From the IMG/VR virus record IMGVR_UViG_3300037455_000448, positions 32,001 to 96,000 of that record: 64,000 nt of DNA. One strand, 5' to 3'. This DNA comes from a virus. Lineage: Duplodnaviria; Caudoviricetes. The notes under the pieces are model-generated. The model made no database searches. It had not been told where the DNA came from and worked only from the letters and a program-made list of their open reading frames with translations. Positions 56,830 through 61,981 of the stretch are shown one piece after another (the first letter of the stretch is position 1; each line of letters begins with the position of its first letter). Made by a program: the position numbers and the translations under genes.

Positions 56830-57053
56830 GTATGGATAAATTATACGTAATTGGTAGTTGTTACTCAGATAATACCGATAATGCAAAAGAACTTTTTAAA
56901 GTATTAGAGGATGCAGGATACATCTTAGGGTACAACATGAGTAACAAGAATTCATGTACCATCATGAAAGAAATGGAAGAACCAGTTGAAGAATAAGGGT
57001 GATATCTAATCACTCTTTTTTGTTGCAAATTTTTAGGGGAAAGGAGGAACGAT

Positions 57054-57656: not shown

Positions 57657-57737
57657 TTTATACAACATATTTGTCAAAAAGGAGCGTATATCCATCGCTC
57701 TTTTTTTATTGCAAATCTTTAGGGAAAGGAGGACAAC

Positions 57738-58499
57738 ATGGCAACAACTCAGGATTTAGGTCTTGTGACATCGTATGGTTATGCCAGAGCGGGTGGCTAC
57801 AGAGGAACTGTAGATGAATATGAAGCCTATCTCGCTAATCTTCCATCATATGCATCACAGGCAGCCGCTTCAGCTACTGCTGCTGCAGAGTCTGCCACAA
57901 CAGCTACTGAGTCCGCAACAAACGCACAGACCGCTTATAACAATACAGTAATTGAAGCAGCAAAGGCAGCAACTTCTGAAGATCATGCTGCTGAGTATGC
58001 AACTAACGCAGCGACTTCAATGTCTCAGGCTTCGCAGTATGCATCCAATGCATCAGCAAGTGCTATTGCTGCTGCATCAGATGCTGATGATGCGCATGAC
58101 GATGCAGAGATTGCCAAGCAGGCAAAAGAAGCTGCCATTACTGCAAAGAATAACGCACAGCAATCTGAACAGAATGCAGCATCAAGTGAGGCAAAAGCGA
58201 AATCATGGGCAGTTGGACCAAGTGCAGCTGAAACAAGTGGCTCAGATACAAACAATGCAAAGTATTGGTGTGAACAGGCACAGGCTGTAGTTGGACTTGA
58301 TGTTTTCGTTGGAGCTACTGCTACTACTAATGGTCAGCAGGGATTAGTTCCGGGGCCAGCAGCTGGTATGCAGAATCGCATCTTGTTTGGAGATGCTACA
58401 TGGAAAGCTTTGAATTTGGTATTTGAGGGTACAACCCAGGAATGGGCAGATACTACGAATAAAGCTTTCTACAAGATAGTTATTTTAACGGATGATTAA
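57738..58499 (+). CDS. tail fibre stem protein
   Basis: Ala/Ser coiled coil, NNAKYW, GLVP.P.AG, ends FEGT..EW..ILTDD. Confidence 0.7.
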   Translation: MATTQDLGLVTSYGYARAGGYRGTVDEYEAYLANLPSYASQAAASATAAAESATTATESATNAQTAYNNTVIEAAKAATSEDHAAEYATNAATSMSQASQYASNASASAIAAASDADDAHDDAEIAKQAKEAAITAKNNAQQSEQNAASSEAKAKSWAVGPSAAETSGSDTNNAKYWCEQAQAVVGLDVFVGATATTNGQQGLVPGPAAGMQNRILFGDATWKALNLVFEGTTQEWADTTNKAFYKIVILTDD

Positions 58500-58519: not shown

Positions 58520-59521
58520 ATGAGTGTAAATATATATGATTCATCTAATGATACTCTGGTCAAAGTTCCAGGCACAGAAACATCTGCGTTTACTGGAGCA
58601 ACGAGTAGCGCGGCTGGTACAAAAGGATTGGTTCCTGCTCCTGCTGTAGGCGATGAGGCCAAAGTACTTGGTGGTGATGGTACATGGTTAGATGTAGACA
58701 CTACCCCAACTGAAGACGGAACCAATCCAGTAAGTAGCGGAGCTGCATATGCGTTAAAGACGGCTTTATCGAACCAAAAAGCTGACAAAGCTGATGTTAT
58801 GAATGGCAATGCTGGTGCACATAATGCTATATATCGTGGTAAAAGTCTTGGTACGTCAGTAACTGCTGCACAATATACAGCAATCAGTGCTGGCACATTC
58901 GATGATATGTTCATCGGTGATTACTGGGTAATCAATAGCATCACATGGAGAATTGCAGCTTTTGATTACTGGTATAACAACGGAGATACAGCTTGCACGA
59001 CTCACCATGTCTTGCTTGTTCCTGACACAAACCTTGTAAACGCTAAAATGAATGATACCAATATCACTACTGGAGGTTATGTTGGTTCTGATTTCTACAC
59101 TGGAAACAATGGAAATACAGGATATGCTACAGCAAAGAACACCATCAACACAGCCTTCGGTTCAAGCCACATTCTGAACCACAGAGAATATCTTATCAAT
59201 GCAGTTGCCGATGGGCATCCATCAGGCTGCGCATGGTATGACTCTACAGTAGAGCTGATGAATGAGAACATGGTTTACGGTAGCAAGTTCTTTGAACCTA
59301 TGGCAAATGGTTCAGCAGTTTATGCAAATTACAACATAAACAAGTCTCAGCTGCCTTTGTTCCAGCATAGACATGACTTGATCTGCAATAGAGCCAGCTG
59401 GTGGCTGCGCAGCGTTGTTTCGTCGGCGTATTTCGCCTTTGTCGCCAGCGACGGCGTTGCGGGCGCCTACGGCGCTTCGCTCTCTGTTGGCGTTCGCCCC
59501 GCTTTTGCAATCAAAGCGTAA
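58520..59521 (+). CDS. DGR target protein (tail fibre tip/receptor-binding, CLec-like C-terminus)
   Basis: IGDYW, WRIAAFD, WWLRS...GVRPAF C-terminus overlapping the variable repeat. Confidence 0.85.
   Translation: MSVNIYDSSNDTLVKVPGTETSAFTGATSSAAGTKGLVPAPAVGDEAKVLGGDGTWLDVDTTPTEDGTNPVSSGAAYALKTALSNQKADKADVMNGNAGAHNAIYRGKSLGTSVTAAQYTAISAGTFDDMFIGDYWVINSITWRIAAFDYWYNNGDTACTTHHVLLVPDTNLVNAKMNDTNITTGGYVGSDFYTGNNGNTGYATAKNTINTAFGSSHILNHREYLINAVADGHPSGCAWYDSTVELMNENMVYGSKFFEPMANGSAVYANYNINKSQLPLFQHRHDLICNRASWWLRSVVSSAYFAFVASDGVAGAYGASLSVGVRPAFAIKA
58752..58783 (+). repeat. recombination-site-like repeat inside the DGR target gene
   Basis: CGTTAAAGACGGCTTTATCGAACCAAAAAGCT; 24/32 ungapped identity to 62447-62478. 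Confidence 0.55.
59393..59509 (+). repeat. DGR variable repeat (VR)
   Basis: 117 nt, 95/117 identical to 60231-60347; 3' end of the target gene; GC hairpin at ~59535-59555. Confidence 0.9.
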
Positions 59522-59633
59522 GCGTATCTTTAATCCCCCACCCCCTGTGGGTGAGGCTTAGCCTAAAGCAAGCCAACGAAGTAAATTGTTAAAAAACTGA
59601 ATAAAGCAAGAATGTAACACAGGAAGGAATAAC

Positions 59634-60206
59634 ATGAGTACAACCCCAAAAAGCCAGCGAAGTCCTACGCCCTTCGAAGCCGAGCATCATTTTTTCAGAT
59701 TGAGAGATGAAGTAACTGCTCTTATGCTATTAGATTTCGGATTCTCAGAAGAAAAATACAGGAAGAGAATAGAACATTATCGGCAGGTCCACAGGAATGC
59801 CGATAATGTAGATGAAATCGTACAGAGATACGAGAAAAAGTGTCAATCATTCAAGGAATGGTTCGTAGAGCGAGAAAGAGATGCGATATCAGATATCCTA
59901 AGGGAGATAAGCATAGAGTTCACAACAGCAAATTCCATATTCCCATCAGAAACAGCAGCAAAGATAATGGAATATTGCCAGCGCAGAAAGCATCTCAATG
60001 AAGCTATATCAAAATGCTTTGCGCTTAAGAAGGAGATACAGTATGTTATCAGGACTCTTCCGGTAGATATCAATAAGTACAAGAGATTCGATAAATCAAT
60101 AAATGAGCAGATAGCATTATTCAAAGGCGTTCGCAGAGCGGATAACAGATTTCTCAAAGCCAAGGGGAATAAAGAAAAGAAAGGAAAGGCAGAAGATGCT
60201 AAGTAA
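59634..60206 (+). CDS. avd: DGR accessory variability determinant (Avd-like)
   Basis: Basic helical protein between VR and TR; ANSIFP..E...R....AI..C..L..E.Q. Confidence 0.75.
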   Translation: MSTTPKSQRSPTPFEAEHHFFRLRDEVTALMLLDFGFSEEKYRKRIEHYRQVHRNADNVDEIVQRYEKKCQSFKEWFVERERDAISDILREISIEFTTANSIFPSETAAKIMEYCQRRKHLNEAISKCFALKKEIQYVIRTLPVDINKYKRFDKSINEQIALFKGVRRADNRFLKAKGNKEKKGKAEDAK

Positions 60207-60230
60207 TTTCATAGGGCAATCTTTGAATGG

Positions 60231-60347
60231 GCCTACTGGTGGCTGCGCAGCGTTGTTTCGTCGGCGCCTTGGGTCGGTGTCTGCTCCTGCGGCTTTGCGA
60301 GCCACTACGGCGCTTCGTACTCTGTTGGCGTTCGCCCCGATTTTGCA
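60231..60347 (+). repeat. DGR template repeat position (adenine-depleted)
   Basis: Between avd and RT; flanks pair (60213-60224 with 60395-60406); only 8 A and no AAY codons. Confidence 0.8.
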
Positions 60348-60506
60348 GATGCATAGACAAGACCTCAAGCTAGGCATTGCATGTATGCAAAAGGAAAGAT
60401 TGTCCTTGCTGAATAAGCTTAAAGATAGCGGTGAAACACCGGAGCCAATGTGTTGGTTTGCCTTACGCAAACGGATAAGTCTGAATGCTAACTGGGGCTT
60501 AACTCT

Positions 60507-61685
60507 ATGAGAAACACAGACCTCCCTGAGGACGGGATAGCAGATATGAATTTGCTTTATGATGCATTCCAGGCATCAATGAAGGGGAGCTCATGGAAAG
60601 GAGAGCCGCAAGGTTTCGAAGCAGATTTCCTAAGCGAGCTGACAAAGTTGAGTGACGAGCTGCTTGACAAGACCTATAGGACAAGTAAAGGTTCAGAATT
60701 TGTCCTCAAAGAGCGAGGAAAGGAAAGATATATCCATGGCAACAGAATGAGAGACAGAGTGGCAAGGCATTGCATATGCGATAATGTTCTGACACCCACG
60801 CTGTCAAAGTATCTGATTTACAATAACGGAGCCAGTCAGAAAGGGAAAGGTATAGATTTTTCAAGAAAGATATTTGAGAGAGACTTGCATAATTACTGGC
60901 TTGAGCACAGAAGTAATGAAGGATATATAGCATTCATGGATTTGTCCAAGTTCTTTGACAATATCGTGCATGAAGAAGCACTGAGAAGAATCAAGCCAAA
61001 GATTGATGAACAGTCTCAATGGCTCATAGAAGTAATCTTTGATAATTTCAAGGTGGATGTATCGTATATGTCGGATGAAGAATATCAGAGCTGCATGAAG
61101 AAAAAATTCAACTCCATAGAATATCACAAGAATGTTCCTGAAGAATTGAAGACAGGAAAGAAATTCATGAGAAAGTCAGTTGATATAGGCGACCAAGTAT
61201 CGCAGGATGTAGGCACATTCTTTCCGACAGACGTAGATAATTATGCAACCATAGTAAGAGGATGCAGAAGATACGGCAGATATATGGATGATATTTACAT
61301 AATCCATGAGGATAGAGAATTTCTAAAATCTGTCATAGCCGGAATTGAGAAGATTGCGGACGAGATGGGAATGTTCGTCAACAAGAAGAAAACAAGGTTA
61401 GTAAAGCTGTCAACAACATATACATATCTGCAATTCAAGTACTCATTAAGCAATACCGGAAAAGTAATCAAAAGAATCAATCCGAAATCAGTTACAAGAG
61501 AAAGAAGAAAACTTAAGAAGTACAAGCATTTGCTTGATAGGGGAACGCTCAGTTATTCAGAAATAGAACAGTGTTACAAGTCATGGATATGTGACTATGC
61601 AAAGTACATGTCCAAGGTACAACGAGAGCATATGCAAGCTCTATATGAAGAACTATTTGGAAGGAGAATAAGATGGAAACAGTAA
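60507..61685 (+). CDS. DGR reverse transcriptase
   Basis: RDRVARH, D.SKFFDNI.H, IGDQVSQ, YGRYMDD; intact 392-aa ORF. Confidence 0.92.
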   Translation: MRNTDLPEDGIADMNLLYDAFQASMKGSSWKGEPQGFEADFLSELTKLSDELLDKTYRTSKGSEFVLKERGKERYIHGNRMRDRVARHCICDNVLTPTLSKYLIYNNGASQKGKGIDFSRKIFERDLHNYWLEHRSNEGYIAFMDLSKFFDNIVHEEALRRIKPKIDEQSQWLIEVIFDNFKVDVSYMSDEEYQSCMKKKFNSIEYHKNVPEELKTGKKFMRKSVDIGDQVSQDVGTFFPTDVDNYATIVRGCRRYGRYMDDIYIIHEDREFLKSVIAGIEKIADEMGMFVNKKKTRLVKLSTTYTYLQFKYSLSNTGKVIKRINPKSVTRERRKLKKYKHLLDRGTLSYSEIEQCYKSWICDYAKYMSKVQREHMQALYEELFGRRIRWKQ

Positions 61686-61981
61686 CCATTATTTTCAAAG
61701 ATGCCACATCCATAACAGCAAAGCTGAACGGAAATAGCTTTATTACAGACGAAGAGCCAAGATTTCCTGATGATATGACAAAAGTCATTATCAGAAAAGA
61801 GGATGGATCCATAGAAACAATCAGGAACGCAGAAGTGCAGGAGTGTGCTTCAACAGATGGCAAGTACTGGTTTACATTTGTTGTTGCCACAGAAATGGAT
61901 AAGCTGCAGGCCCAGGTGCTCTTCACAGCACTTGAAACAGACACACTTATCATAGAAGAAGATGAGGAAGAGGAGGAGTAA
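61673..61981 (+). CDS. small fibre-associated protein
   Basis: LNGNSFI; LQAQVLFTALETDT; precedes an XkdX-like gene. Confidence 0.6.
   Translation: METVTIIFKDATSITAKLNGNSFITDEEPRFPDDMTKVIIRKEDGSIETIRNAEVQECASTDGKYWFTFVVATEMDKLQAQVLFTALETDTLIIEEDEEEEE

Follow-up and report, generated by a model that had tools for sequence, protein, structure and literature searches.

A phage diversity-generating retroelement with an adenine-depleted, apparently mutagenized template repeat

Can the template of a natural diversity-generating retroelement (DGR) itself become mutagenized? DGR function rests on an asymmetry, in that the template repeat (TR) is never altered, so that diversification of the variable repeat (VR) can be repeated endlessly; that the TR DNA stays unaltered has been stated as a rule (PMC10907252). 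The question is raised by a DGR locus at 58.5 to 61.7 kb, at the tail-module end, of a 64,000-nucleotide (nt) stretch of rumen phage DNA. This stretch, hereafter the window, comprises bases 32001 to 96000 of the 117,268-nt linear IMG/VR virus record IMGVR_UViG_3300037455_000448 (estimated completeness, 68%). We favor, with some reserve, a history in which mutagenized complementary DNA (cDNA) overwrote the TR DNA, the template being replaced by an adenine-mutagenized copy of itself.

The VR (59393 to 59509) and the copy at the TR position (60231 to 60347) align over 117 nt without gaps and with 22 mismatches (81% identity), at which the TR base is T seven times, G six times, A five times, and C four times. 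Adenines number 8 in the TR copy (7%) and 7 in the VR, compared with 32% A across the window, and the TR copy contains no AAC or AAT (AAY) codon. The mismatches are distributed 10/11/1 over the three codon positions, placing 21 of 22 at positions 1 and 2. The counts of mismatches and adenines and the codon-position bias given in the original prediction, which was made from the sequence alone, were all reproduced. The two repeats share the 30-mer TGGTGGCTGCGCAGCGTTGTTTCGTCGGCG, which occurs twice in the window with no occurrence expected by chance, and a search of the full 117-kb record for another such repeat found no third copy.

Ancestry and anatomy of the template site

Searches based on the reverse transcriptase (RT) recovered 25 viral, 53 metagenomic, and 6 genomic loci, the latter being prophages in Lachnospiraceae and Oribacterium assemblies. 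In all 60 loci with a usable repeat pair, the RT-side copy holds 16 to 37 adenines and the mismatches fall almost solely on them; judged by these pairs, the RT family is adenine specific. The nearest relatives by RT identity are L029 (66%) and L004, L005, and L044 (60%), whose TRs are homologous to the window repeat. The TRs of these close relatives have AAC or AAT at codons 2, 13, 16, 18, 19, 20, 22, 24, 25, 26, 30, and 32, and 19 of the 22 window mismatches lie within the 28 columns that are A in both the L029 and the L004 TRs (Fisher P = 2e-12). Across the 24 AAY sites, the VR and the TR copy agree at 6, where two draws made independently from the VR spectrum observed in 54 relatives would agree at about 7, and each copy retains A at 5. 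Agreement at the chance level suggests that one AAY-rich template gave rise to both copies through separate events of adenine mutagenesis.

That ancestral TR would have carried about 12 AAY codons and about 31 adenines. At the level of sequence comparison, the AAY-rich ancestral state and the independence of the two copies are established, and the earlier proposal that both copies descend from an AAY-rich ancestor, the one at the TR position being itself mutagenized, gains strong support from this alignment of homologous loci, in which the TRs of relatives read AAY at the sites where the window copies differ. Among relatives, the clade at about 48% RT identity carries an identical TR in about 40 contigs, and partial loss of TR adenines was seen only in two contigs of this clade, L009 and L064. 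In these two loci (L009, 3780 to 3890; L064, TR at about 648 to 790), the 5' half of the TR shows 4 to 9 A-to-N changes, several of them common to the locus's own VR; the pattern reflects either partial template erosion or assembly chimeras of TR and VR, and the L064 contig has 3.5x coverage.

The locus is made up of the following parts.

58520 to 59521, plus strand: DGR target gene, 333 amino acids (aa), tail-fiber-like, with the VR inside a C-terminal DUF6273 domain (open reading frame [ORF] list, Pfam, PHROG)
59393 to 59509, plus strand: VR, forming the last 39 target codons ahead of ...IKA*, with homology to the L004, L005, L029, and L044 VRs
59482 to 59509, plus strand: VR end of the initiation of mutagenic homing (IMH) type, with the A-free block CTCTGTTGGCGTTCGCCCCG as in the TR, then C (A in the TR), then TTTTGCA
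59539 to 59553, plus strand: GC hairpin CACCC-CCTGT-GGGTG about 30 nt past the VR, a target-recognition hairpin or cruciform (DNA folds)
59634 to 60206, plus strand: Avd-like accessory gene, 190 aa (position conserved in relatives; AlphaFold2 [AF2] model and structural matches)
60213 to 60224, plus strand: 5' arm of the template-closing RNA stem
60231 to 60347, plus strand: TR position, occupied by an adenine-depleted VR-like copy with 8 A
60271 to 60274, plus strand: three clustered non-adenine changes found only in the window TR copy, TGG GTC for TTC GCC
60395 to 60406, plus strand: 3' arm of the template-closing stem, within the TR-RT spacer
60507 to 61685, plus strand: DGR RT, 392 aa and intact; motifs IGDQVSQ (residue 227) and YMDD (residue 259)

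The locus is a genuine phage DGR laid out like that of BPP-1, with a target bearing VR and hairpin, an Avd-like gene, a TR within an RNA stem, and an RT. The VR terminates the 333-aa ORF, and the TR sits 160 nt upstream of the RT within a 300-nt noncoding stretch that separates the 190-aa ORF from the 392-aa RT ORF. The RT, which the original prediction had rightly described as an intact YMDD enzyme, matches Pfam RVT_1 (E = 7e-14) and phrog_1423 (E = 1e-51), and the RTs of close strains (P0121 and P0123) are full length and 96 to 99% identical to it. The target protein has a PHROG tail-fiber match, more than 8,000 homologues with a conserved WWLR...GVRPAF end, and a Pfam DUF6273 match above the cut-off (residues 275 to 332; E = 9e-6). 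With regard to display on a C-type-lectin fold, this DUF6273 match spans the VR, and the AF2 model of the target is unusable (predicted local distance difference test [pLDDT] score, 40).

The Avd-like protein is conserved at its position in the loci of relatives at 37 to 61% identity. It has no sequence-family match, a PDB sequence search came back empty, and Foldseek returned nothing below an E value of 0.2. Its AF2 model (pLDDT, 85) resembles known Avd structures: the top four structural matches (2gsc, 2rld, the Avd chain of the bRT-Avd ribonucleoprotein 8ub7, and the BPP-1 Avd 4dwl) are all Avd-family bundles with Z scores of 13.7 to 15.1, which is weak evidence, as helical bundles are a class that scores high by chance. 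In L007 (3259 to 3891), and likewise across most of the 48% clade, the 211-aa Avd-like ORF runs in frame through the whole TR, so that its C-terminal tail is translated TR (…NNNGNAN…SNGVRPDF); the window ORF ends at 60206, 25 nt before the TR.

Several features mark 60231 to 60347 as the true template site, as far as anatomy can tell. The TR copy keeps an A at 60342, directly after the GC run (GAT, where the VR has GCT), and this difference of C in the VR and A in the TR is also fixed in L004, L005, L029, and L044. The VR is thus distinguished from the TR as IMH from IMH*, and the GC hairpin is found only after the VR, DNA folds revealing no equivalent 3' of the TR copy. A VR-side hairpin occurs at the same position in relatives with the CYTGT loop and other stems (L004, CCGCCC/GGGCGG; L029, TCCGGGG/CCCCGGA). 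The target hairpin loop of this DGR family is a 5-nt CYTGT, as at L004:3020-3040 and L029:1578-1598, with stems that covary. The predicted pairing of 60213 to 60224 with 60395 to 60406 proved real, as relatives show it at the same distances and with compensatory changes. This closing stem of 11 to 13 bp between the avd 3' flank and the spacer behaves so in six lineages and is kept in L029, L004, L007, L030, and L057. Support for the stem comes from this covariation; the fold of the whole TR RNA is no more stable than those of shuffled sequences (z = -0.9). What sets the locus apart is its template, which is neither AAY rich nor invariant, as it holds 8 A and no AAY codon and is unlike the TR of a near-identical strain (see below), and VR differences fall on template adenines at just 5 of 22 places in the window pair, while they are confined to adenines when the inferred ancestral template is used. 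This departure from the adenine rule is the finding itself and not evidence for another family of element.

Two further sets of repeats lie upstream, in the tail-fiber module. A 40-nt direct repeat (57009 to 57048 and 57694 to 57733; 75% identical), which ends in GGAAAGGAGGA and precedes two consecutive ORFs of the tail-fiber module, is probably a repeated promoter or ribosome-binding region. Five degenerate 39-nt repeats at 57849 to 58076 encode Ala/Ser/Thr-rich segments in a 253-aa fiber-like protein upstream of the DGR target.

The adenine-poor template in the source sample and in other strains

A bovine gut run in which 99% of the region's sampled words occur is the probable source of the record, and we compared the window with its Logan contigs (k = 31), which come from a different assembler. 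These contigs are interrupted only at the shared 30-mer. One spans 59399 to 60265 and carries the VR variable part, avd, the TR 5' flank, and the codon-2 TAC; another runs from 60237 to 61700 and beyond with the adenine-poor TR, the TR 3' flank, and the RT. Both show 0 differences from the window, at depths of 13.1 and 13.7 compared with 13.4 in the upstream flank, and in the contigs the VR is likewise a single path at flank depth. Differing places in the source run amount to two C>T and two G>A, a tally without any N>A and hence without an adenine-rich alternative path among the contigs. Because the shared 3' blocks measure 13 and 20 nt, 31-mers must join the adenine-poor part to the TR-specific 3' flank. 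The sequence is real in the source sample, on evidence that is strong if not final. The outcome that would have undone the original prediction, a collapse of VR reads onto the TR, is made unlikely by k = 31 contigs that link the adenine-poor sequence to the TR flanks at full depth.

An assembly artifact, with VR-variant reads threaded through the TR position of a mixed population whose real TR is adenine rich, is very improbable. In its favor, the record was assembled from short metagenomic reads, DGR repeats are known to cause trouble, and the L009 and L064 contigs, as assembled, contain partly VR-like TRs. Set against this, the second assembler gives the same path at full depth with no adenine-rich path, 31-mers tie the adenine-poor part to the TR 3' flank and codon 2 to the TR 5' flank, and an independent European Nucleotide Archive (ENA) assembly of a sister strain is also adenine poor at the TR.

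This sister strain became visible through a frame at 60196 to 60510 that reads through the TR and is annotated by gene callers. The only homologue of the TR-spanning frame is P0125, which comes from ENA contigs no longer than 813 nt and is identical over the 24 residues before and the 60 residues after the variable part, with 8 residue differences inside it. Its TR was decoded from the protein and not read as DNA. By this decoding, the second-position base is A in codons 2, 13, 22, and 30, G in codons 16, 18, 19, 20, 24, 25, and 26, and T or C in codon 32. A is thus kept at 4 of the 12 readable AAY sites, and codons 14 and 15 are the ancestral-like TTC GCC. The near-identical genome of P0125, on the evidence of its protein, carries a different adenine-depleted TR. 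The window and P0125 TRs match at 6 to 7 of the 12 sites, which is not significant for shared ancestry (P = 0.04 to 0.13).

Other close strains were sought in several collections. None was found in phage GenBank records or viral contigs (two exact patterns), in metagenome contigs (best RT identity, 66%), or in genome contigs (best, 61%), and the target protein had no close-strain cluster members. In run X2, from another study, a contig anchored in both TR-specific flanks shows 26 differences from the window, among them 13 T>A and 1 A>T; the T>A excess hints, without establishing it, that the X2 strain may keep an intact adenine-rich TR. Two gut metagenome runs from two further studies, X4 and X5, contain contigs identical to window positions 60056 to 60208 and 60361 to 60532 at a depth of about 2.5x; among the X4 and X5 pieces listed, none of this phage spans the TR.

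Routes to a rewritten template

In the history that we favor, the adenine-error-prone RT would copy the AAY-rich TR, and the resulting cDNA, which normally replaces only the VR, would in one or more instances have been incorporated at the TR locus instead. The direction of homing is set by IMH versus IMH* and by the hairpin after the VR, with some residual hairpin-independent activity (PMC3240598; PMC12875486). Since the TR lacks both the IMH C and the target hairpin, canonical retrohoming is less likely here and a hairpin-independent route is favored, in which the cDNA would anneal to the TR locus. The A-free blocks of 30 and 20 nt, together with the flanks of the TR itself, could have served as annealing sites, plausibly with assistance from the phage's single-strand annealing protein of the Erf family. 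This protein is encoded outside the window (locus L088; G000:C1:11256-11672, minus strand) and matches PF04404 (E = 7e-46) and phrog_155; no RecT or Rad52 family member was found in the record. The route and the involvement of Erf are thus suggested by the layout of the site and the gene content of the phage. A change is seen even at codon 2 (TAC; ancestral AAC), upstream of the VR/TR homology, which fits a cDNA reaching into the TR's own flank, and the kept A at 60342 and the untouched TR-specific flanks also fit annealing of cDNA. Swapping IMH* for IMH is said to make the BPP-1 TR mutable, reportedly from work by Doulatov et al. in 2004; no such swap occurs in this window. TR self-mutagenesis has been engineered in the DGRec system, which combines bRT-Avd with CspRecT (bioRxiv 10.1101/2025.03.24.644984).

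The alternative that comes closest dispenses with cDNA: the VR of a coinfecting sibling genome would have replaced the TR through homologous recombination or gene conversion. The identical 30-nt and 20-nt blocks of VR and TR are possible crossover sites, the TR copy resembles an ordinary VR variant, and the phage encodes a recombination protein. Conversion does not readily explain why codon 2 is altered upstream of the 30-nt block, where only GCC is common to the two repeats and the TR-specific 5' flank is intact, why the IMH*-type A at 60342 is retained, or why TTC GCC has become TGG GTC, a change found in no VR seen; we regard conversion as unlikely, and cDNA overwriting is weakly favored over it. 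Of the original prediction, the overwriting of the TR accordingly stands, and the choice between self-retrohoming of cDNA and conversion from a VR is resolved only weakly, toward cDNA. It is also unlikely that both repeats are recipients of an intact adenine-rich TR of the form TGGTGGCTGCGC...GTTCGCCCCG, lying in the third of the genome that the record lacks or in a coresident element and acting in trans. The linear record is 68% complete, the two copies behave as independent draws, the TR position varies between near-identical strains as a VR does, and DGRs can act on nonadjacent targets (PMC5758913). Yet the site has the IMH*-type A, lacks the target hairpin, and lies in no target reading frame; it sits within the conserved TR-closing stem, where all relatives have their TR, and no source-run contig shows N>A differences over either repeat. 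A true TR in trans, which the original prediction had kept as an alternative, is therefore disfavored by the contig data and the TR-type anatomy, in a record that is 68% complete.

The other alternative offered at the outset, an RT that has lost adenine specificity and mutates all four bases, so that the TR is intact and the pattern is normal output, can be rejected as scarcely credible, because all 60 relatives are strictly adenine specific. Mismatches at the TR copy do lack a base preference, and surveys list atypical non-A DGRs. The mismatches nevertheless fall at positions 1 and 2 of codons that are AAY in the homologous TRs, the RT motifs are intact, and a TR with 7% A in a genome with 32% A bears the signature of a recipient.

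Some observations speak against overwriting by cDNA or limit how far it can be taken. The IMH*-type features still present in the TR ought to shield it from canonical homing, and the three TR-copy changes at 60271, 60272, and 60274 are not at adenines. A relative whose TR is intact has Erf too, so the protein can be at most permissive. A second TR may lie outside the record, which is 68% complete. The source-run contigs were built from the record's own reads, and contigs drop rare variants and do not represent single molecules. Lastly, P values of 0.04 to 0.13 for the match with P0125 do not separate stepwise shared erosion from independent events.

Consequences and known systems

If the template was overwritten by its own cDNA, the change would be irreversible, as non-adenines are copied faithfully and each TR adenine lost is lost for good. 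Six adenines are left in the diversified part of the TR (codons 2, 7, 24, 25, 26, and 30), which by our arithmetic puts the writable repertoire at about 4^6, formerly about 4^24. The VR differs at 17 non-A template positions and must have been last written before the template changed; further homing would replace a selected VR with unselected TR sequence. For the phage, this would mean a frozen receptor-binding tip on a tail protein that can hardly vary any more. More generally, a naturally rewritten TR shows that the protection of a one-way system leaks. Irreversible adenine loss is a possible way for DGRs to die, and it is a possible cause of the surveyed VR/TR pairs that break the A-to-N rule. 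Automated DGR callers that demand an adenine bias will miss or mislabel such loci. A cause open to testing is suggested by the co-occurrence of Erf and by the DGRec result.

The different adenine-depleted TRs of near-identical strains raise the further possibility, which we hold tentatively, that in this phage lineage the template's own cDNA rewrites it repeatedly or by degrees. Phage DGRs would then regularly fail by overwriting themselves, perhaps with help from phage annealing proteins such as Erf, and eroded templates would be short-lived evolutionary dead ends among intact relatives. The fidelity of the TR-to-VR rule, and its enforcement, would become measurable in natural populations.

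Gene order in the BPP-1 DGR (mtd-VR-IMH-hairpin, avd, TR, spacer, and brt) is the same as in the window. Both place the VR at the C-terminal end of a tail-fiber-type protein, followed by a GC-rich IMH-type block and then a hairpin after the VR only; both have an RT with IGxxxSQ and YMDD, and in the window the accessory protein is predicted by its model to share the Avd fold. In both, the avd 3' end pairs with the spacer to enclose the template (PMC3240598, PMC12875486). Transfer in relatives is strictly A-to-N. They differ in that the TR DNA is unaltered in BPP-1 (PMC10907252), whereas the window TR is missing about three in four of the adenines that diversify, and non-A template bases underlie 17 of the 22 VR/TR differences. 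The window hairpin has a CYTGT loop in place of the GRNA tetraloop described for BPP-1-like phage DGRs, and the 190-aa Avd-like protein has no sequence-family match.

Departures from the A-to-N rule have been surveyed before. Wu et al. 2018 found at least one non-A-to-N difference in 23% of DGRs, with a maximum of 11 in one target, and ascribed such cases to RT errors or later mutations (PMC5758913). These pairs are natural rule breakers like the window pair, which has 17 such differences that are assignable to the TR by means of homologous TRs. Surveys list non-A-to-N pairs without reading them as self-mutation (PMC5758913; Roux et al. preprint), and in the limited library that we searched we found no description of naturally eroded TRs. 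DGRec provides the mechanistic likeness, as mutagenized cDNA there overwrites the template-RNA locus given a single-strand annealing protein, and the window phage encodes Erf; DGRec is an artificial Escherichia coli system with mismatch repair disabled, whereas the event in the window is natural and the part played by Erf is only inferred. Closest of all are the DUF6273-target DGRs of Lachnospiraceae-type gut and rumen phages (L004, L005, L029, L044, L082, and the clade at about 48%). With 48 to 66% identity in the RT and 37 to 61% in the Avd-like protein, they share homologous TRs and VRs and the same hairpin and closing stem with the window, and they differ in having kept 16 to 37 adenines in their templates.

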